Assembly (NCBI GenBank): GCA_003671185.1
Contig: QWPN01000116.1
Coordinates: 1-50,986, forward strand
Direction: 5' to 3'
Origin: Planctomycetota bacterium
GTDB lineage: Bacteria; Planctomycetota; Planctomycetia; Pirellulales; UBA1268
DNA length: 50,986 nucleotides
This document shows, piece by piece, positions 14,038-32,568 of this stretch. Below the pieces are notes generated by a model, which saw only the letters and a program-made list of their open reading frames with translations, had not been told where the DNA came from and ran no database searches. Every line of letters starts with the position of its first letter. Position 1 is the stretch's first letter. Made by a program: the position numbers and the translations under genes.

Positions 14038-14363
14038 CAACTGCTCCTCGCTGCACCCGGCGCCCGACCGGCTGCGGCGATCTGCCGCAGCGGGGCGCCG
14101 GCCCGGCGCGACGTGCGTGTCGCTCGGGCGGACTTGATTCCGCGACGACAGAATAATCGATTTGCCGCGATCCAGCAGGGCGGCCCTTTTCGCCGTGGGG
14201 TCGGGCACCCGGAGCGTTTTTGGACACTGGCGGCTTTTGTTCCCGATTTGAACCGGGTTCAGGCCTTCGACCCCCCTGACGTGCCTACGGGCCGCAGCCT
14301 TGACCGCGACCACCCTTCGGCACCCGCGGTAGGATGTGGAATTCGCTCGCCCCCACCAAGCGC

Positions 14364-15548
14364 ATGAGCCAGTCGCACGTGTCCGCATCGCCGCCTGCTG
14401 AACCCTCCCCCACCGCTGCCGCCCCGCCGCGCGGCGACAAGGAGTCCCGCCCCTGGCCCTGGTGGGCGCCCCGACTCTGGCACGGCATGACGCTGGGCGA
14501 GTGGACGTCGCTCGCCGGCGAGCACCGCTGGCGGGCGAGCCCTAGCCGCTGGGGGCTGGTGGCGACGATCACGGCCGCCTCGGGCTTCAACTCCCTGGCC
14601 GCGAGACTCTGCGCGGCGGCCTATCGGCGCGAGCTTCGTTCGCCGCCCGAGACGCCGCCGCCGCTGTTCATCATCGGCCACTGGCGCTCGGGCACGACGC
14701 TGCTCCACGAACTGATGATGCTCGACGGGCGTTTCTGCTGCCCCAACTACTACCAGTGCTTCTCGCCCAATCACTTCCTACTCACCGAGCGGGTGCTGAC
14801 GCCGGCCCTGTCGTGGATTCTGCCCGCCAAGCGGCCGATGGACGACATGGCGAGCGCCTTCGACAAGCCGCAGGAGGACGAGTTCGCGCTCATGAACATG
14901 GGCGCGCCCTCGCCGTACCGGCGCATGGCCTTCCCCGTGACCAGCAGCCCGCATCCCGTGGCGCTCGACCTGACCACGCTGCCGGCGGCGGACCTGGATC
15001 GCTGGCGCGACACCCTGCGTCGGTTCCTGGCGATGCTGGCCGTGGCCGACCCGCGCCGCCCGGTGCTCAAGAGTCCGCCTCACACGGCCCGCGTCGGCGT
15101 GCTGGCGGAGATGTTTCCGCAGGCCCGGTTCCTGCACGTCGTCCGCGACCCCTTCGCCGTGTTCGGCTCCACGATGAAGCTCTGGCGTTCGCTGGACGCG
15201 GGCCAGGGCCTGCAGGTTGATCGAGGTGAGCGGCTCGAGCAGTATGTGTTCGAGTGCTTCGAGCAGATGTACGCCGCCTTCGAGCGGGATCGAGCCACGC
15301 TGGCGCCGGGGCGGCTGCACGAGGTCCGCTACGAGGAACTCGTGGCCGATCCCGTCGGCCAGATCGAGCGGGCCTACGACACGCTCGCGCTCGGCGATTT
15401 TTCTTCGATGCGCGAGGCCTTGGCCAAAGAGGCTGCCTCGCGGCAGAGTTACCGCGCCAGCACGTACAAGCACGACCCGCGGATTGTCGCGGAGATCTGC
15501 CGGCGCTGGCGACCCTTCATCGACCGTTACGGCTACACGCCGCCGTGA
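14364..15548 (+). CDS. PAPS-dependent sulfotransferase (Sulfotransfer_3 / Stf3-like)
   Basis: GHWRSGTTLLH (5'-PSB loop), RPMDDM, PQEDEFA, LKSPPHT, VRDP (3'-PB). Confidence 0.85.
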   Translation: MSQSHVSASPPAEPSPTAAAPPRGDKESRPWPWWAPRLWHGMTLGEWTSLAGEHRWRASPSRWGLVATITAASGFNSLAARLCAAAYRRELRSPPETPPPLFIIGHWRSGTTLLHELMMLDGRFCCPNYYQCFSPNHFLLTERVLTPALSWILPAKRPMDDMASAFDKPQEDEFALMNMGAPSPYRRMAFPVTSSPHPVALDLTTLPAADLDRWRDTLRRFLAMLAVADPRRPVLKSPPHTARVGVLAEMFPQARFLHVVRDPFAVFGSTMKLWRSLDAGQGLQVDRGERLEQYVFECFEQMYAAFERDRATLAPGRLHEVRYEELVADPVGQIERAYDTLALGDFSSMREALAKEAASRQSYRASTYKHDPRIVAEICRRWRPFIDRYGYTPP

Positions 15549-16346: not shown

Positions 16347-17340
16347 TCGAGCGCATTCCGCCTACGTGTAGCGGTAGCCGCAATGCTGGAAGCAGTTACG
16401 GCACTCCGCCTCGGTGAAGCGGTCGAGGATGTCTCCACAGACCGACCACAGGGCATCAACCGTCCGGGCAGATGCGCTCTTCAAGAGCCGCTTGAACTTC
16501 GAGAAGACGAGTTCGATCGGGTTGAGATCCGGGCTGTAGGGCGGCAGGTAGACGACCCTCGCGCCGGCGGCCGCGATCGCCTCGCGTACATCTGCAACCT
16601 TGTGGACGCCGAGATTGTCCATCACCACGACGTCGCCTGGCTGGAGCGTCGGCACCAGGTGGTGTCTCGCCCAGCCGAGGAGGATCTCGCCGTTGATGGC
16701 CCCATCCACGACCAGAGGGGCCGTCAGGCCCGTCGTGCGAAGGGCCGCGAGGAAGGTGGTCGTCTTCCAGTGACCGTGAGGCGCGCTGGCCAGCAGGCGT
16801 TCGCCCGTAGGGGCCCGGCCACGCGGCCGGGTCATGTTCGTCTTGGCCCACGTTTCGTCGATGAACACGAGCCGATCCGGATTCAGGAGCGGCTGCTCCC
16901 GCTTGAGTTCCTCCCGCCGCTCCGCGGCGATGAGCACTTTTTTTGACGGTCAGACGCAGCCGCTTGAGCGCCGTGCACAGCGTCTGCACCGAGAGTTCTG
17001 TCTGAAGTTTCGCCTTGAGCTCCCGGAGCGTCAGGTCGGGCCTGTGACGAATCACGGCACGCATCCGATCTGCCAGCGGAGCCCACAGTGGCGTCCGACG
17101 CCGCGTCAGGTACGGGGCAACCTTATTCAGTTCCCGCCGCTCCTGCTTGACCCGACGCACCCACGACTCACCGACGTTGACGTGCGTCGCGACCTCACGG
17201 GTGCTACGCCCCCTGTCGCAGGCCGCGAGCACCTCACCGCGGAACTCCTTCGTGTACGGCCTCATGGACACCTCCTTGGAGATGACCACGCTACCCAAGT
17301 TTGCCCGGGGGGGCGCTCGTCCTATGTCAGACGCGCTCTA
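16347..17340 (-). mobile_element. IS630 family insertion sequence (~1 kb)
   Basis: Transposase inside; ends ctAGAGCGCg (17341 inward, minus strand) and ctCGAGCGCa (16346 inward) form a short imperfect inverted repeat consistent with a TA/CTAG-type target. Ends approximate. Confidence 0.75.
16362..17265 (-). CDS. IS630 transposase split into two frames at an A7 run (16938-16944)
   Basis: [13 protein letters not shown] (HTH, AAGGAGG RBS) ...RLTVKK; ORF-B with DDE motifs [21 protein letters not shown]. Confidence 0.85.
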
Positions 17341-17454
17341 GCCCCCGCCCGACTGCTGCATCGATCCGGCCCCAAAACCGGATGGCGTCGGCCAGACACC
17401 ACACGGAGCAGACTGGCCCCAGGCCTTTCCGGGGTCGAGGTTCGGTCTTCGTGC

Positions 17455-18326
17455 ATGTACGTCTCTCGCCTACCGTCCCGGCACTGGAGCCGCCACGCCT
17501 TCAGCCTCGTGGGGCTGCTCGTCGTGATTGCGATCGTCGCGACCCTCGTCGCACTGCTTCGGCCGGCGATTCAGTCGGTCCGCGAATCCGCGCGGCGGAC
17601 GATGTGCGCCAACAACCTGAAGCAGTTGGCCGTCGCCATGCTGTCCTACGAGCAATCGCAACAGCAGCTCCCCGCCGCCGCCCGCGTGACCGAACAGGAC
17701 ACCTGCATCGACTGCTTCATCCCCTGGACGGAAGCGAAACTCGCGGCCGGATCGTTCGCGCCTGGAACCAGCGCACGGCACGAGCTGGATGTTCAAGATC
17801 TTGCCGCACATTGAGCAACTCGCCATCCGCGGATCCTGGAACCCCGACACCAACGTCCTCGGCAATGCCGCACTGGCCCAGACGGACATTCCGGGCTTCT
17901 ACTGCCCTTCTCGTCGGAATGGCATCCGTACGGGAAGCGGCGACCACCTGAACCTCCTCGATCCCTCCTGGCGAGGTGGCGGCAACGATTATGGCGGCTG
18001 CTACGGCAACGGCTGGCACCGCCTCTGCTCGCAGGGGGCCGACACGGGGACGCCTACCACCGCCACTCCCTCCCGCCCGCGGGACCGTCACGACACGGGC
18101 CGACTGAACGGGATCTCCAAGGCGGCGCAGTCCAGGCGGCCTGTGCACTGGATTCTTCGAGTCACCGGGCAGCGAACACCTGGGCGGTTGTTTCATCGCC
18201 ATGGGTGACGGATCGATCGACTTCGTCAGTGAATTCGTCGATGCCAAGGAGACCAACTCCGTCTTCGCCCTGCTGGGATCGATGCGCGATGGCGAGACCG
18301 TGAGCCTCGCGGCGGTGGTGAACTGA
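17455..18326 (+). pseudogene. DUF1559 (prepilin-type N-terminus / H-X9-DG C-terminus) planctomycete protein, frameshifted
   Basis: AFSLVGLLVVIAIV...ESARRTMCANNLKQ; after a shift WMFKILPHIEQ, FYCPSRR; in another frame SEHLGGCFIAMGDGS. At least two frameshifts. Confidence 0.85.
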
Positions 18327-18737: not shown

Positions 18738-18906
18738 CGGCCCCGGACGGCGGCCCGCACGACCGCCACAACCGCCACGACCGGCGGCCACCGCACCGCG
18801 TCCATTCCCGGACTACGCCGCCAGAAGTGCGAACTACACTGGTCTTGAGGTCGGGCTCTTGCCTGGCTTCGACCCTCCGACCGCCACGCCCGTCACCGCA
18901 CTCGCC

Positions 18907-20388
18907 ATGAACACGATGCGCCTCCTCCGGCTCACCACGCTGGGGCCGATCTTTGGCCTCTTCGTGCTCGCGGTGCTCGCGTTCTTCAACCAGCGGGCCG
19001 TCAACCGGGCCCAGATCAACCGCTACGAGTCCTTCCGCCTGGCCCAGGAACTCCGCGCCAGTTCCGAGGATCTGACCCGCCTGGCCCGCACCTACGTGGT
19101 CACCGGCGACCCCGTCTACGAGGAGCAGTACTGGCATCTCCTCGACGTCCGCAACGGCGTCAAACCCCGGGCGGACGGCCGCACCGTGCCGCTGCGGACC
19201 CTGATGCAGGCCCAGGGCTTCAGCGTCGAGGAATTCGCCAAGCTCAAGGAGGCCGAGAACAACTCCAACGCACTGGTGACCACCGAGACGATCGCCATGA
19301 ACGCCGTCAAGGGCCAGTTCGACGACGGCCGCGGGGGCTACTCCCGCCGCGGGCCACCCGACCCCGAGTTGGCCCGCCGGATCATGCACGACCAGAAATA
19401 TCATGCCGACAAGGCGATCATCATGGGGCCGATCGCCGAGTTCGAGACGCTCCTCGACCGGCGCACCGAGGCGTTGGCAGCGGCGGGCCGGCGACGCGGC
19501 GATTTCGTGATGTCGATCGGCGTGCTGCTCGCGTCAGCCGCCGCCATCGCCACCTGGATCAGCCTCCGGCGCCACGGCAGCACGCTGCAGGCCGCCATCG
19601 GAGAATTGGCTTCCACGTCCGAATACGTGGCGGTGGGCGCCACCCAGATCGCCTCCTCCAGCCGCTATCTGGCCGAGGGGGCCGCGCAGCAGGTGGTCGC
19701 CCTCGAGGAGATCGCCATATCGGCACGGGAAATGGGCGGCATGGCCACCAGCAGCGCCCACAACACGCAGACCGTGAGTGATCTGGTCACGCGCGAGCAG
19801 CGGCACTTCCAGGACACCATGGCCCAGCTCGCCGACATGCTCCAGGCCATGGAGGAGATCGACGCGGCCAGCGACCGGATCTCGCGGATCAACAAGGTGA
19901 TCGATGAAATCGCCTTCCAGACCAACATCCTGGCCCTCAATGCGGCGGTCGAGGCGGCTCGGGCCGGAGAGGCCGGCCTCGGTTTCGCGGTGGTCGCCGA
20001 CGAGGTCCGCAATCTCGCCCAGCGCAGCGCCGAGGCTGCCCGGGAGACGGCAACGCTGATCGAGGAATCGATCACGCGCACGCGGGCGGGCCGCGGCAAG
20101 GTCGACCAGGTGACGAATGCCATCCGTGCCCTGGCCGGGCAGTCGGCGGAGGTGCAGTCGCTGGTGGAAAACGTGCGGCTCGGCAGCCGTGACCAGCACC
20201 AGGCGATCGACCGCGTCCGGGCGGCGATCGAGCGCATCGAACAGGTCTCCAAGCAGGCGGCCGCCGGGGCGACGCAGGGCTCGGCTGCAGCCGAGGAACT
20301 CACCGCCCAGGCAGGCGGGCTCCGGGACGTGGTGGCGACGCTGGAGAGGATGGTGGAGGTCGCCCGCCGACCGGCCGCCACCGGCTGA
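18907..20388 (+). CDS. Methyl-accepting chemotaxis protein
   Basis: Two TM helices around a sensory domain; signalling hairpin [37 protein letters not shown]. Confidence 0.92.
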
Positions 20389-20551: not shown

Positions 20552-20600
20552 ACGCGGGAATTTCCCGCGTCTTGACGCCATTCTCCGTCCTTCAGTATTC
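20552..20600 (+). promoter_or_regulatory. Perfect 9-1-9 palindrome followed by a TTGACG -35-like hexamer: candidate operator/promoter of the ATPase operon
   Basis: ACGCGGGAA-T-TTCCCGCGT at 20552-20570; TTGACG at 20572-20577; only a weak -10 (AGTATT/TATTCG). Confidence 0.5.
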
Positions 20601-20613
20601 GGGAGCTTCAGTC

Positions 20614-20955
20614 ATGATTCGGGCAGCACACCCAGGCGTCGACGGGCTCGCCTCCATGTCCACCGTATGGGCCGTGATGGAGGCCGCCCGCGCCGGCGCG
20701 GCCGACGCATCCTGCGCCGCCCGTGGCTTTCTGCCCGCGGTCTCGCAGGCAGTCGGCCGGGGCGCGCATGTCACCGGTTTCACGATCGGCTACGCCGTCG
20801 CCTTTCCCGCCTGCCTCGTGGCCCGGCTCGTCCCCCGCAACAACGCCATCGTCTACGGTCTCACCGACGGTGGTCGCGCGGGTATCGATCTGGCACGGAC
20901 CACGACGCAACGCGAAGCCGAGCCGGTGCCCGCGCTCGCCGTCGTCACGGCCTGA
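20614..20955 (+). CDS. Small hypothetical membrane-associated protein, paralogue of 27929-28282
   Basis: GGGAG upstream; shares Y..(A/V)FP......VP.NN..V.GL.DG.RA with 27929-28282. Confidence 0.7.
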   Translation: MIRAAHPGVDGLASMSTVWAVMEAARAGAADASCAARGFLPAVSQAVGRGAHVTGFTIGYAVAFPACLVARLVPRNNAIVYGLTDGGRAGIDLARTTTQREAEPVPALAVVTA

Positions 20956-21002
20956 CCCCCCGCCCCACCCGTCCTCCACCCCATCTCCAGGAACCCGATC
21001 GC

Positions 21003-21260
21003 ATGACGCGCTCCGAATTAGGCTACTTCTGTGCAGGCGTCGCCGCCGGCGCTCTGGGCCACAAGTTCTATCCGCAGCTCAAAGACAAGCTTGCCCCGTA
21101 CATGGCCGGTGCCATGGTGTTCGCCCAGCAGGCGTTCGGCGACGCCATGAAGGACGCCATGGCCACCGTTGACGCCATGCACCGGGCGGCCGAACCGGTG
21201 GGGGCGGAGTTCTTCACGGGCAAGACCACGGAAGCGTCTTCTGGCGAAGCCGCAGCCTGA
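21003..21260 (+). CDS. Small protein with N-terminal GxxxG hydrophobic helix and amphipathic tail (FezA-like architecture)
   Basis: MTRSELGYFCAGVAAGALG..., 85 aa, AGGA upstream, directly before the ATPase. Confidence 0.65.
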   Translation: MTRSELGYFCAGVAAGALGHKFYPQLKDKLAPYMAGAMVFAQQAFGDAMKDAMATVDAMHRAAEPVGAEFFTGKTTEASSGEAAA

Positions 21261-21300: not shown

Positions 21301-23937
21301 ATGGATGTCCGCGTCACGTTTCCCCGGGAAGGCGTCATCCACGTCGAGGGGCCTGTGTTCGCCGCGGCGGACAGTGCGGCCTGTCGGCAGTTTCTGCGCT
21401 GCGCCTTCGCGGTTGCCGAGATCGACGACGTCACGCTCACCGGCGGCCGATCGCCCCGCGCCGAGCTCCGCTTTTCGCCGCGGCGCGGCAGCGCTCGCCA
21501 AATCCTCGATCGGGTGGCACGGCTGCTGGGAGCCGCCGCAAACCCCGATGATGCGACACCCCGGGCGGTCGCGGAGATCCAGATCCCGGTGATCGCTCGC
21601 GACCGTCGGGGCGCCGTGCGGGTGCAGCGTCACGGCGAGCTGGTGTCAGGCTGGCGCGTGGTTCGCGAATCGCTGGGAACCGTGAAGCTCTCCCATCCGC
21701 TGATCCACAGGCGGGGCGAGGTTGCCGAAGCCATTGAACGGGAACTGATGAGTGTGCTGGGGGTCGACAAGTACTCCACCAACACGTTCTTCTCCACGGT
21801 CACGGTCGACTACGACCCGCGGCAACTGTCCCGCTCGCAGGTGGTCGAGATTCTCGACGGCGTCCTGGCCGGGAACCCGATCCCCTCCAAGCTCGACAAG
21901 CTCGACCTGTCGATGGCCCTCTGCACGGTGTCGCTGCCGCTCGCCGCCGTCGCCCAGTTCGCCTTTCCTCCCCTCCTGCCGGCGGCGGCGCTGCTCTTCG
22001 CCTACACGTCAGTGTCCACGTTTGCATCCGCCAAGGAACTGCTCGTCAAGGAACGCCGGCTGGGCTGCGACGTGCTCGACGCCGTCGTCGTCGTCGGCTG
22101 CCTGTCCACCATGCAGATCCTGCCCGGCGCCGTGCTGATGTGGTGCCTGGCGCTGGGCCGCATGCTCGTCAAGCGGACAGAGGATCGCTCCAAGAAGATG
22201 CTGCTCAACGTGTTCGGCAAGCAGCCCCGCTTCGTGTGGGTCGTGCACGAGGGTGTCGAGGTGCAGATCCCCCTGGCGCAACTCAACCAGGGCGACGTGA
22301 TCGTGGTCAACACCGGCGACGTGATGCCCGTAGACGGCGTCATCGCCGAGGGTTTCGCGATGATCGATCAGCACGCGCTCACCGGCGAGAGCACCCCGGC
22401 CGAAAAAGGTCCGGGCGACCGCGTCTTCGCCTCCACCGTGCTCGTGGCCGGCAAGGTGTTCGTGGCGGTGGAGTCCAGCGGTACGGATACGGCCAGTGCC
22501 AAGATCGGCAAGATCCTGGCCGACACGGCCGGCTACAAACTGGCCCGGCAGCACGCCGGGGAACGGCTGGCCGACACGGCCGTGATCCCCATGCTGGGCC
22601 TCGGCGCCCTGGGCTTCGCCGCCATGGGCCCGGCCGGCGCCGTGGCGATCGTCAACTGCGACCTGGGCACCGGAATCCGCATGGCGGCGCCGCTGGCGAT
22701 GCTCAGCTCGCTCGCGCTGTGCGCCAGCAAGGGCATCCTCATCAAGGACGGCCGTGCCCTCGATCTCATGAACGAGATCGACACCGTACTCTTCGACAAG
22801 ACCGGGACGCTGACCCGCGAGCGGCCCGAGGTGGGGGTGGTCCATGCCTGCCAGCCCTGGGGAGAGAATGCCATCCTCCGCTATGCGGCGGCGGCCGAGC
22901 AGAAGTTTCACCACCCGATCGCGCTGGCGATCCTGCACGAGGCCAACGATCGCGGACTGGAACTGCCCCCCGTCGAGGAGAGCGAACTGAAGGTCGGCTT
23001 CGGCATCAGCGTGCGGGTCGACGGCCGGCTGATCAGGGTCGGCAGCCGTCGTTTCATCGAGCAGGAGGGGCTCACCATCGGTGCCGACGTGGCCGCCGCA
23101 CTGGAACGCGCCCATGCCCTGGGCAACACCATGGTGCTGGTAGCCGTCGACGACACGCTCGGCGGGGCGATCGAACTGCAGGCTTCTGTGCGGCCGGAGG
23201 TGGCCGAGATCGTGGCCGGACTGCGGGCCCGCGGCATCCGTCACCTGGCGATCATTTCCGGCGATCACGAGGCTCCCACGAAGCGGCTTGCCGAGCAGCT
23301 GGGCATGGACCGCTACTTCGCCCAGGTGTTGCCGGCTGACAAAGCCGACTACGTCGCCAAGCTGCAGGCCGAGGGTCGCAAAGTGTGCTTCGTCGGTGAC
23401 GGCATCAACGATTCGATCGCGCTCAAGAAGGCGAATGTGTCGATCTCGCTGCGTGGTGCCTCGACGATCGCCACCGACACGGCTCACATTGTGTTCCTCG
23501 ACGAGGGCCTTTCGCACCTCTGCGAGCTGCGCGACATCGCCCGCGAGCTGCACGCCAATGTGCGGCGCAGCTGGCACATGATCGTGGCGCCGAACGTCGC
23601 CTGCGTGGCGGGCGTGTTCACACTCGGCTTCGGCATCTATGCCAGCGTGTTCTTCAACAACATCACGGCGCTGGCGGCCGTGGCCAACGGCCTGTGGCCG
23701 ATGCGCAAGGTGGCCCAAAATGAGGCTCGGCGCAAGCAACTGATCGCCGCAGCCGTGCAGGCTGACGCAGCGAAGGACGGCGGCGCCGCATCGGAGCCGA
23801 GGGTGGCGGATGCGACCAGCGCCGCCCCGCTGCCGCCCGTCGCCGGCGGCGACGGCGCGTCGACCGCCACGCCCGCCGTCGGGAACGGATTCGGTGTGGG
23901 CGTGCCGTCGCTGACGCAGGAAGCATCGCCGGTATGA
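21301..23937 (+). CDS. Heavy-metal P1B-type ATPase without CPC motif (P1B-6/FezB-FezH-like), with N-terminal HMA-like domains
   Basis: TGES, DKTGT, HHP, SGD and GDGIND intact; TM motif NCDLGTG and late TM FNNIT instead of CPC; no CxxC metal-binding motif in the N-terminal domains. Confidence 0.88.
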   Translation: MDVRVTFPREGVIHVEGPVFAAADSAACRQFLRCAFAVAEIDDVTLTGGRSPRAELRFSPRRGSARQILDRVARLLGAAANPDDATPRAVAEIQIPVIARDRRGAVRVQRHGELVSGWRVVRESLGTVKLSHPLIHRRGEVAEAIERELMSVLGVDKYSTNTFFSTVTVDYDPRQLSRSQVVEILDGVLAGNPIPSKLDKLDLSMALCTVSLPLAAVAQFAFPPLLPAAALLFAYTSVSTFASAKELLVKERRLGCDVLDAVVVVGCLSTMQILPGAVLMWCLALGRMLVKRTEDRSKKMLLNVFGKQPRFVWVVHEGVEVQIPLAQLNQGDVIVVNTGDVMPVDGVIAEGFAMIDQHALTGESTPAEKGPGDRVFASTVLVAGKVFVAVESSGTDTASAKIGKILADTAGYKLARQHAGERLADTAVIPMLGLGALGFAAMGPAGAVAIVNCDLGTGIRMAAPLAMLSSLALCASKGILIKDGRALDLMNEIDTVLFDKTGTLTRERPEVGVVHACQPWGENAILRYAAAAEQKFHHPIALAILHEANDRGLELPPVEESELKVGFGISVRVDGRLIRVGSRRFIEQEGLTIGADVAAALERAHALGNTMVLVAVDDTLGGAIELQASVRPEVAEIVAGLRARGIRHLAIISGDHEAPTKRLAEQLGMDRYFAQVLPADKADYVAKLQAEGRKVCFVGDGINDSIALKKANVSISLRGASTIATDTAHIVFLDEGLSHLCELRDIARELHANVRRSWHMIVAPNVACVAGVFTLGFGIYASVFFNNITALAAVANGLWPMRKVAQNEARRKQLIAAAVQADAAKDGGAASEPRVADATSAAPLPPVAGGDGASTATPAVGNGFGVGVPSLTQEASPV

Positions 23938-26375
23938 TTTCCGGCGCGGCGAACGTCGTGCTTCATCCTGCCGGCAGGTGCATCCGCGTCCAGGCGGCCG
24001 CCCTCGGCCGCGGACCGGAGCGGCGTTCCGACAGGATCCGATTCCTGGCACACGTCATGTCCTGCGCCGCGGTGGAGCGGCTCACACTGGACGCCCGGGC
24101 ATCGACGGCCACCATCCACCTCCGCGTCGATGGCACAGACTTTCGCGACGCGGTCGCCTCCCTGGCGGCTGCCGTGAGGGGCCGCGCGGAGGCCGCGGAA
24201 CTGCCCCGCGACTGTCTCGATAACGACCGGCTCTCGATCCAGCGGATCGGGGGCCGCCTCACCACCTGGCAGGTGGGCTCCTCCGGGCCGCATCGGCTGC
24301 AATTCCGCCACCCCCGCCTGCGTCACGACCGCGTCCTGGCCCGCGGCGTCGAACGGTTGGTGGTAGCAGTGCCCGGTGTGCGGAATGCGCGGCTCTCGAC
24401 GTGGTCAAGCGATCTCCTTGTGGAGTTCGACGAGGCCCGGCTGGAAGCGGACACGCTCCTGGCCGTCCTACAGCACGCCGTCGAGACCCGCGCCGGATCC
24501 GAGTCACCATCCGCCCGCTGGCAGATGCTGGGCAAATCGGCGACGCTGGGAGTCGCGGCACTCACCGACTTCGTCTTCCCCGTGCTCGCTCCGCTCAGCG
24601 CCACGCTGCTGGTGGGCACGAACCTGGGCACCATCGCCGCCACGGTAGGCGACCTGCGCAGGCGACGCGTGGGGATGGCCACGATCGCCACCGCGATCAT
24701 CGTGGGAACGCTGGCGACGGGGCAGTATCTGGCGTCGGGTATCATGGCCTGGTCGTTCGCCTTCTGGAGGCTGCGGCACCGCCGCGACGTCGAAGCCGAA
24801 CGTCTCCTGCTGCTCGAAGATGCCGTGCCGCTGCCGGCCTGCTCGCTGATCGATCGAGCCGACGGCACGCTGGCCGTGCAGCCCGTCGACACGCTTCATG
24901 ATGGCGACCACGTGCGGCTCGAGACCTGGGACGTGGTGCCCGCGGACATGCTCGTCGTGGAGGGCCGCGGCGTCGTCGACGAGCGCTGCGCGACCGGGGT
25001 CGCGGGAGCCCGGGCGGTCGGCCCCGACGACCGTGTCCAGGCCGGTGCCGTCGTCCTTGGCGGCCGTCTTCTGGGCGCGATCGCCAGCCAGCGGGAACCC
25101 CGGGTGATGCGGGCGGCCCGGCTGCTGGCCGCAGCCACGCAGACGCAAGCCGGCCGCTTCGCTCCCACGCGGCAGGCCGAGGAATTCGTGGAGCAGCTTG
25201 CCGGCCCCACGCTGGCCACGGCGGGGATCGGCCTGCTGGTGGGGGACGTGACCACGGCCGTCGCCATCATGCGACCCGACTACGCCAGCGCCGAGGCGAT
25301 GGCGGTGTCTTTCGAAGACATCGACGCGGTGGCCTGCGGAGTGGCCGCGGGATGCATCGTCACCGCACCCCGGGCCCTCGACGCCCTGGCCGGCGTGGAC
25401 ACGGTCCTGCTCGTCGATCATCCCTCTCTCCACGAGCGCCGGTTGGAGGTGACGCGGATCCAGCCCAGGCCCGGACCGCACGCCGATGCGGAATTGGAGC
25501 CGCTGCGCTGGGCCGCCAGCCTGGCCCGCCACCTTGCCGATCCGCGCCGCGAGGCCTTGGCGGCACTGGCCGCGGCTCGGGGCCTGATCCTCACCGACAT
25601 CGCCCCGGACTCCTTCGGCGACGAGGCCGGGCTGCGTGTTGTGCATCGGCGGGCCGACCGCACTCTGGCCCTGGTCGACACGTCCGGCGCGGGTGCCGCC
25701 GGGCCTCTCGTACTCCACCTCGACGGCGGAACATGGGCCACGTTCGAATTCAGTCCCGGCCTCGCACGGCGGGCATGCGGAGCCCTCGACCGGATGCGGG
25801 AGATCAGGCCCCTGCACGTGATCCTCGCCCAGCCGGCCGCCGCCACCGACACCCTATCCGAGGAACTGCACTGCGACGATCGCATCGACCTGGGCAGCGA
25901 CGTGGCCGGCACCCTGGTCGACGCCGTGGGCCGCCTGCAAGCCGAGGGGCGTCGCGTCGCCGTCGTAGGGCCGCCCGGCCTGATCGCCCCGTGCCGGGGC
26001 GTGGCTACCGTCACGCTGGCCACCGGCTTCGATGCGGACAGCCAGGGACAGGAGGCCGACATTTACAGCCTGGCGGGCGACATCGCCTGCCTCGCCGACC
26101 TGCTCCTGGCCGCGGCACTCCGCCGCAAACGACTGGCGCTGTCGCGGAAGATGAGCATTCTTCCCAACATGGCATGCATCGTGGGGGCCTTCTTCTTCGG
26201 GTTTACGAGCCTGGTGTCGGCCATCGTCAGCAACGTCGGCACGATGGGCATCTACCGCCGTGCCAGCGGCACGCTCCACCACAACCACCGCACACACTGG
26301 CTGAAGTCTCGCTCCAGCGCCGCGGCTCGCCGGGTCAGGCTGGCCGGTTCGCCGTCCCGGGGGGCCACGCCATGA
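23934..26375 (+). CDS. Degenerate P1B-ATPase paralogue lacking catalytic motifs (pseudo-ATPase)
   Basis: Collinear with the previous gene (VVPAD, PDYASA, LPNMAC...SNVGT), but TGES>TGVA, FDKTGT>LVDHPS, GDGIND>GPPGLI. Uninterrupted 813-aa ORF. Confidence 0.8.
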   Translation: MISGAANVVLHPAGRCIRVQAAALGRGPERRSDRIRFLAHVMSCAAVERLTLDARASTATIHLRVDGTDFRDAVASLAAAVRGRAEAAELPRDCLDNDRLSIQRIGGRLTTWQVGSSGPHRLQFRHPRLRHDRVLARGVERLVVAVPGVRNARLSTWSSDLLVEFDEARLEADTLLAVLQHAVETRAGSESPSARWQMLGKSATLGVAALTDFVFPVLAPLSATLLVGTNLGTIAATVGDLRRRRVGMATIATAIIVGTLATGQYLASGIMAWSFAFWRLRHRRDVEAERLLLLEDAVPLPACSLIDRADGTLAVQPVDTLHDGDHVRLETWDVVPADMLVVEGRGVVDERCATGVAGARAVGPDDRVQAGAVVLGGRLLGAIASQREPRVMRAARLLAAATQTQAGRFAPTRQAEEFVEQLAGPTLATAGIGLLVGDVTTAVAIMRPDYASAEAMAVSFEDIDAVACGVAAGCIVTAPRALDALAGVDTVLLVDHPSLHERRLEVTRIQPRPGPHADAELEPLRWAASLARHLADPRREALAALAAARGLILTDIAPDSFGDEAGLRVVHRRADRTLALVDTSGAGAAGPLVLHLDGGTWATFEFSPGLARRACGALDRMREIRPLHVILAQPAAATDTLSEELHCDDRIDLGSDVAGTLVDAVGRLQAEGRRVAVVGPPGLIAPCRGVATVTLATGFDADSQGQEADIYSLAGDIACLADLLLAAALRRKRLALSRKMSILPNMACIVGAFFFGFTSLVSAIVSNVGTMGIYRRASGTLHHNHRTHWLKSRSSAAARRVRLAGSPSRGATP

Positions 26376-26719
26376 CCGAGGACCTCCCGCCCACGCCGCC
26401 CGTGCAGCGCTCGCCCACCGAACGAGAGGTCGAGGAACGGCTCCAGCGGCTGCCGCCCGAGATGGGTGCGATGCTGCTCACGATCGGCATTTTCGGGATG
26501 ATCCTCCCAGGGATGGTGGGCACGCCCGCGCTGCTGGCCGGCGGGCTGCTGCTCTGGCCGAGGGGCTTCCGTGGTGTCGACCGTTGGCTGCGCCGGCGCT
26601 GCCCGCGATTGCACGGGCAGGGCATCGTCCAGTTGCTCCGCTACCTTGACGACATGGAGCGACGGTATCCTTCAACCCGACACGCCAACCTTGCACCGCC
26701 GTCGGAGGCATCCCCATGA
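26372..26719 (+). CDS. Small membrane protein (Gly/Pro-rich hydrophobic hairpin)
   Basis: LPPEMGAMLLTIGIFGMILPGMVGTPALLAGGLLLWP; ATGA overlaps at both ends. Confidence 0.75.
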   Translation: MTEDLPPTPPVQRSPTEREVEERLQRLPPEMGAMLLTIGIFGMILPGMVGTPALLAGGLLLWPRGFRGVDRWLRRRCPRLHGQGIVQLLRYLDDMERRYPSTRHANLAPPSEASP

Positions 26720-27768
26720 CGACTGACACCCTCACAGCCACGCTCGCTCCCTACGAGGCGGCTCAGATCCGCGAGATCGCCACCTGGAAGAGCATGCTGC
26801 CCAGCCGGATCTCGCAGGCCGTCGACGTGGTGGCCTCGCCGCTGACCTGGGTCGTGGGGCACGTCGTGCCACGCTCGGCGGTGACGAGGATCGTCGCCTC
26901 GATGGAGACCGTCGCGGCCCAGGCCGACATTCCCGCCGAGGTGGCCCGGATCGCCGGCGTGGCCGGGGTGTCCGACCTCGGCAGCCGAACACTCGAGGAG
27001 TGCGACCGCCTGGCATGCATGTTCAGCGCCCGGGCCGAGCGATTGGCGCTCGTCGAGGGGACGGTCTTCTCGCTGGGCGGCCCCTTCGTACACGTGCCGC
27101 AGCAATTGATCGCTTCGCTGCGGTCGGTGACACGCATCGGCCACTGCTACGGCTACACCCTCGAGCAACCGCAGGATCGTGCCCTGGTGATCGACGTGCT
27201 GGAAATCGCGATGCTGCCCGACCCGGCCGAGCGCATCCAGGTCGTGGAGGCGCTGCACGCGGCCATGGATGCCCATGCCGACTCGCTTGGTGACGCCCAG
27301 GATGTGCTCTATCACGCCACGCGCACGATGTTCGCCGAGGAGGCCCTCGACCTGGTGCCGGTCGTGGGCACGGCCGTGTCGTTCCTGTTCGACAATCAGT
27401 TCATGCACGCCGTCGACGTGGCGGCCCGCCGCATCTTCCAGGAACGCTGGCTGCGCGACCGCGGCCTTGTCACTTCGATACCCCCGGCGGCCGTCGCCGC
27501 CCGCAGCAGCAGCATCGGCGAGGTCGGCCTGGCGATCGGCCAGTGCCTGTATTGCATCGGCGCCGTGGCGGGTTTCGCCGCCACCGCGCCCTGCCGGCTG
27601 GTCCAGCACGCAGTGGGGCAACCAGGAAGTCCGGTCGCCGCGGGCGCCCGCCACGGGTCCGATCGGGCCGTTCACGATGCTCGGGAGTTCATGGATGGCC
27701 TGCGGAGTTCGTTCGCGGAAGCCGAGATGGACGAGTTCGCAACGGCCGCTCCAGCGGCCGGAACATGA
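26716..27768 (+). CDS. EcsC family protein with C-terminal extension
   Basis: YEAAQIREIATWK, IGHCYGY, LVPVVGTAV...NQFM...FQERWLRD resemble EcsC-family motifs. Confidence 0.65.
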   Translation: MTTDTLTATLAPYEAAQIREIATWKSMLPSRISQAVDVVASPLTWVVGHVVPRSAVTRIVASMETVAAQADIPAEVARIAGVAGVSDLGSRTLEECDRLACMFSARAERLALVEGTVFSLGGPFVHVPQQLIASLRSVTRIGHCYGYTLEQPQDRALVIDVLEIAMLPDPAERIQVVEALHAAMDAHADSLGDAQDVLYHATRTMFAEEALDLVPVVGTAVSFLFDNQFMHAVDVAARRIFQERWLRDRGLVTSIPPAAVAARSSSIGEVGLAIGQCLYCIGAVAGFAATAPCRLVQHAVGQPGSPVAAGARHGSDRAVHDAREFMDGLRSSFAEAEMDEFATAAPAAGT

Positions 27769-27928: not shown

Positions 27929-28282
27929 ATGACCCACGAGACTGCCGCTGACGCGACGGCAAACGCCAACCACGACCCCCTGAATGCCGTCGCCGATGCG
28001 ATGCAGGCTGCCGCCGCCACCGTGTCGGACGGAGCCAACGCGGCCCGTCAGGCCGCCGAGAAGGCGCTGCCCTCCGTGGGCCTGTTCGCCAACCGTTTCC
28101 TCTACACGTCCTCCTACGCCGTTTCCTACGGCGTCGTGTTCCCGCTGGCACTCATCGCGCTCTCCGTGCCCCACAACAATCCGTTCGTGCACGGCTTGGT
28201 CGACGGTTCGCGGGCCGCCCGCGACAAGGTCGACGCGCTGCTGAGCGGGAAGCCGGCCACCAGCGAAGTGCCGGCCACCTGA
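27929..28282 (+). CDS. Small hypothetical membrane-associated protein, paralogue of 20614-20955
   Basis: SYGVVFPLALIALSVPHNNPFVHGLVDGSRA; strong GC3 codon bias. Confidence 0.78.
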   Translation: MTHETAADATANANHDPLNAVADAMQAAAATVSDGANAARQAAEKALPSVGLFANRFLYTSSYAVSYGVVFPLALIALSVPHNNPFVHGLVDGSRAARDKVDALLSGKPATSEVPAT

Positions 28283-28319: not shown

Positions 28320-28787
28320 ATGGAGCTCGCTCTGGAGGATCATTTCGGTGCCAGCCGCAGCCTGGTTGAATTGACGGGGCGCGTGGTGGTGCTTGTGTAT
28401 GCCGAGCGTCGCGGCGCATCGGCGGCGCTGCGCCTGGGACGGTCCTTGCACGAGCGATTCACAGCCGCTACCGGCGATCCGGCTGTGAGCGTCATTCCCG
28501 TCGCCTGCCTGGCCGAGGTGCCGCGTCTCTTCCACGGCATGGCGCGCAGCCTGCTGCGCCGCGAATCACCCCACGTCGTGGTGTGGATCGATTTCCATGG
28601 CGCCTTGCAGCGTGCGGTTGGCTTGAAGCCGAACGTGGCCAACGTGGCCATCGTCGACCCTCACGGCCGGCTCGACGGAGTGCATGCCGGAGATTTCGCT
28701 CAGCCCTTCCTGGAGGCGGTGGCCGCGGACATCGAACGCTGCCGTCGGGGAACGGAGATCACACCATGCCCGCGCGGTTCTGGCTGA
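28320..28787 (+). CDS. Hypothetical protein, possible redox-inactive thioredoxin/AhpC-like fold
   Basis: LEDHFG...L.GRVVVLVY, VWIDFHG, AIVDPHGR pattern; no CxxC. Confidence 0.5.
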   Translation: MELALEDHFGASRSLVELTGRVVVLVYAERRGASAALRLGRSLHERFTAATGDPAVSVIPVACLAEVPRLFHGMARSLLRRESPHVVVWIDFHGALQRAVGLKPNVANVAIVDPHGRLDGVHAGDFAQPFLEAVAADIERCRRGTEITPCPRGSG

Positions 28788-30493: not shown

Positions 30494-31711
30494 TCAACGA
30501 TTCAACCACACCACCGGTGAATTGACGCTGGCGTCGCCCCACACGCCAGCCCCGCTGGCGTTGATCATGAAAGCGGTCACCCCGGCGGGAAGCGGCTTGC
30601 TCGCGATCACCTCGCCATTGCCGATGGTGCAGGGAATGGTGGCAAGGGACGGGTTCTTCCAGTCAGCAGCCGTCGTGTAGCCGACCGCGGCGCTTTTGAT
30701 CTCACCGCTGACCTTGGCGTGCACCAGCCCATCCTGCGGATCGACCCGCGGCCGCTCAAATCTTGGCATCGGCGGCCCGTCCTTGACGATGCTGTTGGCG
30801 AACCCGCCGATCTCCCAGACCTCCTCCCAGCCGAACCCGTGTCCGTGAATCAAAAACGGACGGATGCAGATGGTGCTCGTTCCCCCGGCCACCTCGGCCG
30901 ACCTGGTCAACGAATCGATCGGATAGGGATCGTTGAAGCCACTCACCCAAAGCATGGGCATCTTCGCGTGTGGCAGATGGGCGGCCGGATCCCACTTCTC
31001 CAGATAGACGCGATACTGCTCAGGCGTCATGTCGTGCTTGTGAATGAAGCCCCCGTGATAGACGGGAATTACGAAGGCGAACCGTGGATCCACACCGGCC
31101 ACGGTGCTAACGATCGTTCCACCCCAGGAGATGCCCGTGAGCCCAATTTTGTTGGGGTTGATCTCCGGATAGGAGCGCAGCAGCGAGTTGGCCCGGATCA
31201 CGTCGGCGACCGCGTGATAGAACCACTGCTCCTGGTCGGGCAGGGCGATGTCGCCAAACCAGCTGATGCGCTTGGGTCCGGCATGGTCGTGCCCCTGATC
31301 GGCGGGAAAGCCGGCGGGCACGCCGAAATGGGTGCCCCCCGGCAGATGCCCTTCCAGATCGATCGCGATGGCGGCGTAGCCGTTCTTATTCCACTGCGCG
31401 ATCCAGGCCGGAAACGCCGTGCCACCTCCACCGTGCGCGCAGACGACCGCCGGCCAACCGCCCTCGGGTGGTTGGCCGCCAGGGGCGGAGTAATAGGCGA
31501 ACACCCAGGTCGGCTTTCCCTTGTAGTCCGCGCCCTCGTAGAAGAATGACTTCATGCCGTTCACGGCCCGTTCCGTGGTGGCGTGCACCGGGGGAACCTT
31601 CGACAGCGCCTCCACGTCCCACGGCATGATCCGCGCGGCGGGCGCCGGTTCGGCGGCGGCGCGGCCCACGAGGATCGCGGTCATCAACGGAACAAGCCAC
31701 TTCATGCGCAT
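30494..31711 (-). CDS. Secreted alpha/beta hydrolase (acetylxylan esterase / dienelactone hydrolase-like)
   Basis: GAGGAG RBS, signal peptide, HGGGG, GISWGG nucleophile elbow, HGH. Confidence 0.8.
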   Translation of the reverse strand: MRMKWLVPLMTAILVGRAAAEPAPAARIMPWDVEALSKVPPVHATTERAVNGMKSFFYEGADYKGKPTWVFAYYSAPGGQPPEGGWPAVVCAHGGGGTAFPAWIAQWNKNGYAAIAIDLEGHLPGGTHFGVPAGFPADQGHDHAGPKRISWFGDIALPDQEQWFYHAVADVIRANSLLRSYPEINPNKIGLTGISWGGTIVSTVAGVDPRFAFVIPVYHGGFIHKHDMTPEQYRVYLEKWDPAAHLPHAKMPMLWVSGFNDPYPIDSLTRSAEVAGGTSTICIRPFLIHGHGFGWEEVWEIGGFANSIVKDGPPMPRFERPRVDPQDGLVHAKVSGEIKSAAVGYTTAADWKNPSLATIPCTIGNGEVIASKPLPAGVTAFMINASGAGVWGDASVNSPVVWLNR

Positions 31712-31797
31712 GTGTGCTCCTCGGTGTGTCGGGTGACGAATGACAGAGTCATGGTGCCAATGCGCCCCGTGCGGGGCCGGACTCGAATCAGGGTGTA

Positions 31798-32568
31798 TCA
31801 GGTCTGCGGGTCTGCATCCCCGACCGCGGCGTCGGAGCGAAGTTGCACCAATGCATTGGAGGCGGCACGCTGCTCCGCCTCCTTCTTGTTGCGCCCCCAG
31901 GCGGGGGCATAGCGACGGCTGCCGATCTGGGCAGAGACGTGGAAGTTCTTGCTGTGGTCCGGACCACTCTCTTCGATCACCTCGTACGTCGGGGTGACCC
32001 CGAAATCCCGCTGCGCCCACTGCTGCAGGAGCGACTTGTGGTTCGACCCCTGCGCTCCGCACGCCACCTGCTCGATTTCCGGCCCCAGCATCCGGGCCAC
32101 GAGCGGCCGCACCGCGTCCATGCCGCCATCGAGGTAGATGGCCGCCACCAGCGACTCGAACAGGTCGGACAGCACCGACGGAGGCACCGGCCGGTTCACC
32201 GCCAGGCCCTTGCCCACGATGAGGAAGTCGATGAGCCGCAGGTGTTCACTGATCCGACTGCACGTTTCGCGGCTCACCACGACCGACTTGATCCGCGTCA
32301 GATCACCCTCCAGGGAATCGGGAAACGCCCTGTACAGCGTCTCGCAGACGAGAAACCCGAGGATCGCATCACCCAGGAACTCGAGCCGCTCGTTCGACGC
32401 CAGACGATGCTGGGCGCCGGAGGCGTGGGTCAAGGCGGCCACGAGCAGCAACGGGTCGCGGAATTCGTAGCCGATACGCCGCTGGCACTCGGCCACGTCA
32501 ACGCCCGGTGGCGGCGGAACCTGGCCGTCGCCCTGCCCCGCTCCATCCTGTGCCGGCTGCCGGATCAT
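31798..32568 (-). CDS. rnc: Ribonuclease III
   Basis: NERLEFLGDA signature, SDLFESLVAAIYLDGG, dsRBD with GPDHSK and NKKEAEQ. Confidence 0.97.
   Translation of the reverse strand: MIRQPAQDGAGQGDGQVPPPPGVDVAECQRRIGYEFRDPLLLVAALTHASGAQHRLASNERLEFLGDAILGFLVCETLYRAFPDSLEGDLTRIKSVVVSRETCSRISEHLRLIDFLIVGKGLAVNRPVPPSVLSDLFESLVAAIYLDGGMDAVRPLVARMLGPEIEQVACGAQGSNHKSLLQQWAQRDFGVTPTYEVIEESGPDHSKNFHVSAQIGSRRYAPAWGRNKKEAEQRAASNALVQLRSDAAVGDADPQT

Follow-up and report, generated by a model that had tools for sequence, protein, structure and literature searches.

A stretch of 50,986 nucleotides from a bacterium of the Planctomycetota (order Pirellulales; contig QWPN01000116.1 of assembly GCA_003671185.1, positions 1 to 50,986 of the forward strand), referred to here as the window, encodes two adjacent P1B-type ATPases on the plus strand: an active pump, which we call ACT (21301..23937), and directly downstream of it a catalytically dead paralogue, PSE (23934..26375), an open reading frame (ORF) of 813 amino acids (aa) with an ATG start. 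PSE is no lineage oddity, but a member of a large and old family that is found in more than one phylum. We consider it rather probable that this family member has been selectively maintained as a membrane subunit or platform without catalysis of its own, within a cation-handling module that ACT drives.

The two ATPases are homologous over most of their length: BLASTP aligns them collinearly with 27% identity over 717 positions (E 7e-38), in agreement with a preliminary description of this DNA, made from its letters, that had taken PSE for an intact 813-aa ORF collinear with the upstream ATPase. ACT carries the complete set of P-type motifs, with TGES, DKTGT, HHP and GDGIND in its cytoplasmic domains and NCDLGTG, PN..C and NN in the membrane helices M4, M5 and M6. 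The preliminary description had listed four replacements in PSE, and all four are confirmed by the alignment. In place of the phosphorylation motif LFDKTGTL, PSE has LLVDHPSL (aa 492-499; 25407..25430, + strand), with Val in the column of the phosphorylated Asp; the TGES dephosphorylation motif of the A domain is replaced by the loop TGVAG (24993..25007, +), with ATGVAG (aa 353-358) aligned to LTGEST of ACT; LADPRR (from aa 534) is aligned to the N-domain FHHPIA; and the hinge FVGDGINDS is replaced by VVGPPGLIA (25962..25988, +; VGPPGLIA from aa 677). In the P domain, the TGD motif and the Lys of P..K are also absent, and AQPA stands in place of SGDH. It had been considered that the Asp of LVDH might occupy the position of the catalytic Asp and be phosphorylated; the alignment speaks against this, as this residue (D495) falls in the Lys column of DKTGT, one residue past the catalytic column, which holds Val. 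With the phospho-Asp, KTGT, TGES, the Asp pair of the hinge and the HP motif of the adenine site all gone, a P-type cycle should be impossible for PSE. Domain profiles reflect the same difference. ACT matches the hydrolase domain PF00702 at 4e-30 and the A domain PF00122 at 1.5e-27, and scores 408 bits against TIGR01525 (cut-off 346); a Pfam scan of PSE returned only PF00122 (3e-12) and a weak HMA_2 match, with no match to PF00702, and the best NCBIfam models, TIGR01525, TIGR01512 and TIGR01511, all remained far below their cut-offs.

The loss of these motifs extends across the family. We assembled 54 loci from species-representative genomes and two from metagenomes and counted motifs in near-full genes, 33 of 53 of the dead and 33 of 48 of the active type, leaving shorter matches out. 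DKTGT, TGES and GDGxND were missing from all 33 PSE orthologues, while all 33 ACT orthologues keep DKTGT, TGE[S/T/A], [H/A/S]HP and GDG[I/S]ND. The same loss is common to all 22 aligned PSE orthologues, only two of which match PF00702. A word-based search retrieved 55 clusters of PSE orthologues at 35-97% identity, with the few named members all from Planctomycetota; in their precomputed Pfam annotation, PF00122 is the only domain in all but three (HMA_2 being present in some), two adding PF00702 and one having none. We further searched a profile of the 22 PSE sequences against 1.84 billion representatives and examined the best 150 matches, all with E < 1e-81 and 33 of them fragments shorter than 640 aa: 143 lack DKTG, and seven have DKTG, TGE and GDGxN[D/E]. 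As close orthologues lack DKTGT as well, decay restricted to one lineage, the alternative raised in the preliminary description, is not borne out, and its view of PSE as retained and non-catalytic agrees with the motif loss in 33 of 33 orthologues and in 143 of the best 150 matches. Database names such as 'Cu2+-exporting ATPase', 'HAD family hydrolase' and 'manganese/zinc-transporting P-type ATPase C' are therefore misleading for these inactive relatives.

Within the family (128 rows), catalytic decay forms a gradient. Deep members read (L/V)(F/L)D-DHPxL and have kept the Asp column, the P-domain Lys and the 'GD' of the hinge, which is followed by a deletion of five residues. In the clade to which the window belongs, this residual Asp, Lys and GD have been lost too, and a hydrophobic residue (V, I, L or F) fills the catalytic column. 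At the position of the N-domain HP, the family has acquired a near-invariant motif of its own, RWAASLARHLADxR (R525, A528, S529, H533, R538, A541), and in some naturally shortened members (670-750 aa) the N domain is incomplete.

Substitution patterns show that the dead gene has remained under purifying selection. By the Nei-Gojobori method, the ratio of nonsynonymous to synonymous substitution rates (dN/dS) between PSE of the window and its 83% identical orthologue at metagenome locus L064 is 0.134 (813 codons, dS 0.76), and 0.27 for the partial, 96% identical orthologue at L065 (294 codons, dS 0.08). For 16 other locus pairs it lies between 0.07 and 0.26; ACT in the same pairs has 0.03-0.26, usually 2-3 times below PSE. 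These values, far below 1, together with motif loss in 33 of 33 orthologues, support the earlier argument against random decay. We also computed the ratio per domain (omega), pooled over six pairs that are not fully independent, one locus occurring in two of them. It is lowest in the membrane helices M1-2 (0.036) and M3-4 (0.027), followed by M5-6 (0.113), the tail (0.127), the N-terminus (0.157), the A domain (0.184) and the P/N domains (0.215). As all values are below 0.22, every part of the protein is constrained, the membrane domain most of all. A unitary pseudogene can thus be rejected on the basis of the open frame, the dN/dS values of 0.134 and 0.07-0.26 and the motif loss shared by 33 of 33 orthologues; homology, the shared family and dN/dS likewise rule out a chance long ORF in DNA of 68-72% GC, the GC content of the window being 66-72%.

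An AlphaFold2 model of PSE, computed from the 22-row alignment (predicted local distance difference test, pLDDT, 85.7; predicted template modelling score, pTM, 0.82), is predicted to retain the P1B architecture, with A, P and N domains on an eight-helix membrane bundle. Foldseek matches it at full length to P1B ATPases, CopA (4bbj, E 4e-26) being followed by ATP7B, ZntA and 7r0g (E 4e-26 to 1e-22, about 630-890 aligned columns) and KdpB ranking after these; in searches by sequence, only the A-domain region matched an experimental structure (HMA4, E 2e-4). Ahead of the A domain, the model has four helices, as in P1B ATPases with their extra helices MA and MB. At the N-terminus, a first beta-alpha-beta domain (aa 1-95), with its strands and helices seen in the model, is followed by a CoBaHMA/HMA_2-like domain at about aa 99-185 (24228..24488, +), which matches PF19991 at E 2.7e-4 and 21.3 bits, below the 30-bit cut-off; seven of the 22 orthologues match at <=1e-3 (best 8.5e-10), and 14 control genomes gave no match to PF19991. 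In M4, the motif R447-P448-D449-Y450 (25272..25283, +; RPDYASA, 447-453, in full) is invariant in the 22-member alignment and present in 33 of 33 loci. It lies at the helix break between residues 439-446 and 450-471 of the model, the ion-binding position of P-type ATPases. M5 contributes PNMAC (aa 744-748) and M6 SNVGT (aa 766-770; together 26163..26243, +), with P744, N745, C748, N767 and T770 invariant in the 22-row alignment. Invariant polar residues thus occupy the canonical ion-site positions in all three helices: R-P-D-Y in M4, P-N-x-x-C in M5 and N-x-G-T in M6. The membrane motifs had been described as kept. PDYASA, PN.AC and SNVGT are indeed present, but RPDY is not the M4 motif of ACT, which reads N[CAS]D[LF]GTG, and only PN..C of M5 is shared between the two proteins. 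A CPx-type metal site (C/S/T-P-C/H) is absent from M4 of both.

In a maximum-likelihood tree (quick search, LG+G4) of 64 chosen rows, comprising 36 dead, 19 active and five partly decayed sequences and four canonical P1B ATPases as outgroup, the 36 dead rows form one clade, with a support of 99 in the Shimodaira-Hasegawa-like approximate likelihood ratio test (SH-aLRT); this clade is sister to the active and partly decayed pumps (SH-aLRT 95). Its members share the derived characters RPDY, DHP and the five-residue deletion after GD. Clade support, backed by RPDY, DHP and the hinge deletion, argues for a single origin, and the family appears to have arisen once, by duplication of a CoBaHMA-type pump of the kind still encoded directly upstream. 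Among the partly decayed sequences, P0158, P0169 and P0182 (with LFDQAAVR, FVGDG-NEN and similar motifs) are nested in the active clade beside pumps of Isosphaeraceae. They represent a second, independent motif loss, later and less advanced, and may be a third paralogue heading to the same fate. The tree also bears on the naming of some genomes: eight loci with a Planctomycetota-type cassette (L011, L025-L028, L050, L051 and L062) come from metagenome-assembled genomes titled 'Candidatus Kuenenia' or 'Chitinophagaceae', and as their genes group with those of Pirellulales and Planctomycetaceae, these titles may be mis-assigned.

The dead gene is closely tied to its active paralogue. Of the 55 loci with a dead-type ORF, 37 have at least 2.6 kb of upstream sequence, and in every one of these 37 that stretch contains an ACT-type ORF in the same orientation. 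In the window, ACT and PSE overlap by the 4 bp of a stop/start ATGA at 23934; besides the window, 14 loci have this overlap, namely 13 from genomes and the metagenome locus L064. ATGA coupling, which had been noted at both ends of PSE, is repeated at 26372, where PSE meets the gene for sm115, and a third time at 26716, between sm115 and the gene for an EcsC-family protein. In the better-conserved loci, these genes are part of a cassette of seven in the order d117-like, u86, ACT, PSE, sm115, EcsC and d117, all on the plus strand of the window. sm115 (26372..26719, +), a two-helix hairpin membrane protein of 115 aa that resembles DUF454 and PGPGW proteins, follows PSE in 45 of 48 loci with at least 450 bp downstream; 21 of 30 members match DUF454 (best E 3.8e-4, below the cut-off) and seven of 30 match PGPGW (3.6e-6). 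Six clusters (P0053, P0078, P0088, P0136, P0161 and P0164) carry it as a fused C-terminal extension of PSE. The dead ATPase P0073 has a 105-aa accessory protein joined to its N-terminal end, and a weak copy of sm115 is found on the active pump P0152. A complex prediction for PSE (813 aa) with sm115 (115 aa) scored 0.00 in both runs, which speaks neither for nor against binding.

Members of the family differ in range and in completeness. The basal dead clade (P0180) contains named alphaproteobacterial homologues from Methylopila, Hansschlegelia, Methylocella silvestris BL2, Beijerinckia indica and Xanthobacter, which are annotated as 'ATPase', 'HAD family hydrolase', 'E1-E2 ATPase-associated domain protein' or 'manganese/zinc-transporting P-type ATPase C'. 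The ACT type has 1187 relatives at E <= 1e-60, Aquisphaera included; proteins from Methylolobus and Methylococcus reach about 62% identity. A search of plasmids with P0180 gave no match. On the mobilizable plasmid pMRAD05 of Methylobacterium radiotolerans (NC_010518.1; L068 8677-11130, L069 5331-8406), an ACT-type pump (46% identity, with NADLGTG, DKTGT, SHP and GDGIND) is followed by a CorA-family gene (PF01544, 2.8e-15), a 614-aa 'hypothetical protein' and a 112-aa ORF without likeness to sm115, with overlapping gene ends. Over 572 columns, hhalign matches the 614-aa protein to the profile of the dead family (probability 98.3%, E 1.6e-14). The protein is a reduced PSE, placed two genes 3' of the pump with the CorA gene in between; its A and N domains are lost, and its N-terminus, all membrane helices and RPDF are kept. 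The cytoplasmic headpiece of PSE thus appears to be dispensable in nature.

Taken as a whole, selection keeps the N-terminal CoBaHMA-like domains of PSE and, above all, its eight-helix membrane domain with the polar ion-site residues. The account that we favour for this pattern is that PSE is made together with ACT, the hairpin protein and the EcsC protein, as suggested by the three successive ATGA overlaps, and would act as the non-pumping membrane subunit of one cation-handling complex. As a platform, it could dock the DUF454-like hairpin and other small membrane proteins beside the pump, and it may add an unpowered cation site or path. The association of PSE with ACT, ion binding by PSE and the identity of the substrate are all points that we infer from sequence. 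For the substrate, Asp/Asn-rich sites without CPx or conserved Cys, the CorA neighbour in one relative and KEGG-style 'CtpC' names indicate that it is probably a hard divalent cation.

Several observations weigh against this account. PSE evolves about 2-3 times faster than ACT, the dead branches are about three times longer on the tree, and long-branch attraction could affect its topology. At locus L063, the 8 kb downstream of an ACT-type gene contain no PSE, which shows that the pump can occur by itself. The range of PSE is patchy: we found it in none of 300 genomes drawn evenly from the phylum, and among 60 relatives, four genomes had matches, two with both genes on one strand (G302 and G341), one with a fragment (G318) and one probably with the active type only (G359). 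PSE is therefore dispensable for most lineages. Deep lineages, with Asp still in the phospho-site column, the Lys of the P domain and the first GD of the hinge, may have some residual phosphate or Mg chemistry. Finally, at four of 55 loci the PSE gene is broken into at least two frames. ACT is also split in four loci, two of them shared, so assembly error is as likely a cause as decay. Split-frame loci include L041, L042, L055, L058 and L063, some with both ATPase genes broken; four of the five lie on contigs of 0.5-1.7 Mb (three with 'MFD' isolate names), and the L063 contig measures 116 kb. To us, the split frames look like assembly indel errors rather than gene decay.

The constraint on the membrane helices, the strongest in the protein, and the invariant residues of the ion-site positions (R-P-D-Y, N, C, N and T) would also suit an autonomous, ATP-independent transporter or channel that serves the same pathway as the pump, for instance in release versus uptake, without binding to it. 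The natural loss of the A and N domains from proteins that retain the membrane domain, and the gene for a CorA-family channel that separates the pump gene from that of the reduced PSE on pMRAD05, point in the same direction. However, the site could just be filled by the invariant Arg beside its Asp, and an assembly accounts better for the ATGA coupling and for the fusions with accessory membrane proteins. Nor do we know of a P-type ATPase that conducts ions without its cycle; we regard a free-standing channel as unlikely. Similar doubt attaches to PSE as a regulatory sensor, in which a metal, a nucleotide-like ligand or an anionic lipid, bound by the CoBaHMA domain or the re-modelled N domain, would gate or localise ACT. 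Here, the conserved N-terminal domains (omega 0.157), the RWAASLARHLADxR motif in the place of HP and the P-domain Asp, Lys and GD of deep members are in favour, as is the proposal that CoBaHMA domains are regulatory and bind anionic lipids (Gaschignard 2024, as quoted in the accessible part of bioRxiv 10.64898/2025.12.07.689555). The N domain is, however, missing from many natural short forms and thus not essential family-wide, and a sensor role would overlap with that of a membrane subunit and exclude nothing in it.

Much less credit is due to the idea that PSE is still an active ATPase with non-canonical residues. D495 is only one residue past the catalytic column, and deep relatives have an Asp in that column itself, but the clade of the window has V, I, L or F there, and PSE lacks KTGT, TGES, TGD, the Lys of the P domain and the Asp pair of the hinge, along with any match to PF00702; we therefore consider residual ATPase activity highly improbable. 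That PSE is a decaying pseudogene, still open by chance, is hardly credible at all. Its faster evolution relative to ACT and the split frames in four of 55 loci would be expected of such a gene, but dN/dS is 0.07-0.26 in all 17 pairs, PSE is intact from Planctomycetota to Alphaproteobacteria, new invariant motifs have appeared, and ACT is split equally often.

A subunit or platform role for PSE could be part of a larger scheme, in which the seven-gene cassette forms the core of an undescribed intracellular, membrane-bounded compartment for cation storage or mineral formation in Planctomycetota and methylotrophic Proteobacteria, with PSE as its structural organiser. PSE would then hold the pump and membrane-shaping proteins together. 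The modules of the cassette recall both ferrosomes (a P1B pump, an Arg-rich HMA domain, a hairpin and Gly-rich proteins) and cyanobacterial carbonate inclusions (CoBaHMA and DUF454), yet we offer this scheme as a speculation that is more probably wrong than right by a good measure.

The first gene of the cassette encodes a d117-like membrane protein of about 113 aa (20614..20955, +), an upstream paralogue of d117 that precedes the cassette in most loci; its start at 20614 is deduced from orthologues, the ORF opening at 20572, and a tblastn search of the window with d117 matches 20731-20889 at 41% identity. u86 (85 aa; 21003..21260, +), with an N-terminal hydrophobic Gly/Ala-rich stretch (AGVAAGALG), is the conserved part of the ORF 20667-21260; its orthologues are 50-83% identical and stand directly 5' of ACT in 22 loci. 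ACT, with its CoBaHMA-like N-terminus, probably starts at the ATG at 21301, where the alignment of orthologues begins; ACT and PSE together then comprise 1,691 aa, or 1,735 aa for the ORFs as translated. Downstream, the EcsC-family protein (350 aa; 26716..27768, +; PF12787 at 1.5e-27) is encoded in 26 loci; its AlphaFold2 model is all-helical (pLDDT 69.8) and has no match in the PDB by Foldseek at E <= 1e-3. The last cassette gene encodes d117, a small membrane protein of 117 aa (27929..28282, +) and the best conserved accessory product, with 44-79% identity across loci; its Atlas matches are 'hypothetical protein' clusters only, from Planctomycetota and Pseudomonadota. A 155-aa ORF after the cassette (28320-28787, +) has homologues at the same position in L017, L021 and L037 (35-41% identity) and may be an eighth, lineage-specific member. 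In deep lineages with Isosphaeraceae-type cassettes, three more conserved genes lie between ACT and PSE (L035 6623-7846, L036 7143-7932, L038 4141-5305, L049 6735-7830 and others), encoding proteins of about 105 aa, of about 180 aa with KRFDIFLIDTxWN, and of about 80 aa with a single helix; the first of these is the one joined to the dead ATPase in P0073. Neither Pfam nor NCBIfam, searched with E values up to 1, offered a credible family for u86, for d117 and its paralogue, for the 155-aa ORF or for these three extra genes.

Directly 5' of the cassette lies a gene for a methyl-accepting chemotaxis protein (18859-20388, +; PF00015, 4.9e-41), which we do not count as a member, as it is not in the conserved neighbourhood of other loci. 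A perfect 8+8 inverted repeat, CGCGGGAA-T-TTCCCGCG, is located at 20554-20568, before a TTGACG hexamer and about 45 bp 5' of the first cassette gene. We rejected it as an operator: it is found in no other locus, and an equally good match arises in 31 of 100 shuffles. Other neighbours, a sulfotransferase (14334-15548, +; PF13469, 3.2e-33), a DUF1559/SBP_bac_10 protein typical of Planctomycetota (16834-17814, +) and an esterase/peptidase-like protein (30494-32062, -; AXE1, 6.9e-7), are unrelated to the cassette. The source genome is a 2.75-Mb assembly, 85% complete. DNA near-identical to the window is present in metagenomes from freshwater, sediment, lakes and drinking water (20 holders, 17 studies), one of which may be the source of the window, and none of the 24 runs listed is an RNA dataset.

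P-type ATPases are textbook single-chain enzymes, the architecture of which is explained by their phosphorylation cycle. Considering that a whole family has discarded this cycle and has nevertheless been kept by selection, always beside an active counterpart, the P-type body must serve a second purpose in the membrane that is not enzymatic, and PSE points to such an undescribed role. If so, the little-understood P1B pumps of the CPx-less, CoBaHMA type would also gain a defined set of partners for study. As the genes are carried by organisms that can be grown, namely Tautonia sociabilis GM2012, Methylocella silvestris BL2, Beijerinckia indica and, on its plasmid, Methylobacterium radiotolerans, the question is directly testable.

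In the literature that we searched, including a term search of PMC10654040, we found no description of a dead bacterial P-type ATPase, though the paper on the CoBaHMA family (Gaschignard 2024) may bear on it; the terms sought are absent from the accessible part of a Chem Rev review (PMC11672702), and of 325 papers matched by a search on FezH, the second ATPase of some ferrosome clusters, the 10 listed were unrelated. The closest structural relatives, P1B ATPases such as CopA, ZntA and ATP7B (4bbj, 4umw, 7si6, 7r0g), have the same fold of eight helices with A, P and N domains, an N-terminal domain of the HMA superfamily and a PF00122 A domain; they differ from PSE in every catalytic motif and in PF00702, all of which PSE is missing, and in the CPx motif of M4, which is R-P-D-Y in PSE. 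Pseudoenzyme precedents come from other enzyme families and organisms: in heterodimeric ABC exporters with degenerate nucleotide sites, and in the P4-ATPase-like domains of apicomplexan guanylate cyclases, a duplicated enzyme body has been kept for structure or regulation after the loss of catalysis.

At the level of gene clusters, the cassette is reminiscent of the ferrosome (fez) clusters. According to the accessible part of the paper describing these (bioRxiv 10.1101/2020.01.10.902569), FezB is a P1B-6 ATPase without CPx, with D[Y/F]SCA in M4, HNxxT in M6 and an Arg-rich N-terminal motif, FezC consists of an HMA domain and two transmembrane helices, and the clusters further encode small GxxxG proteins and sometimes a second ATPase, FezH. 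The cassette likewise combines a CPx-less P1B pump, an Arg-rich N-terminal motif, small hydrophobic Gly-rich proteins and a helical-hairpin module, and some fez clusters, too, hold two P1B ATPases. Judged by the published motifs, it is the dead protein, with D-Y-A-S-A in M4 and S-N-x-x-T in M6, that resembles FezB, whereas D[LF]GTG and NN of ACT differ from it; the FezB signature D[YF]SCA occurs in none of the 434 proteins that we fetched. Unlike PSE, FezH is not described as inactive in that part of the paper, and neither an EcsC protein nor the 117-aa protein is listed there among the Fez proteins.

A second comparison concerns the CoBaHMA domain (HMA_2, PF19991, in Pfam), which was first seen in calcyanin (PMC8890360, accessible part). 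The CoBaHMA-like domain of PSE has conserved basic residues (…RLQFRHPRLRHDR…), as does that family, and the window contains no calcyanin or GlyZip protein. In Microcystis, a CoBaHMA-DUF454-hairpin protein adjoins ccyA (bioRxiv 10.1101/2024.07.07.602159, accessible part). Both of its modules are also found here, split between PSE and sm115 or fused in the six clusters mentioned above; unlike in the Microcystis protein, they flank a whole dead ATPase body. For the proposed assembly itself, a parallel is provided by KdpFABC (5mrw and others), in which, as far as the accessible part of PMC8385062 describes it, the P-type ATPase KdpB works with the channel-like KdpA. KdpA is unrelated to P-type ATPases, whereas PSE, the putative partner of ACT, is a dead paralogue; nevertheless, KdpFABC is a precedent for a P-type pump that belongs to a hetero-oligomer and shares the ion path with a second membrane subunit.

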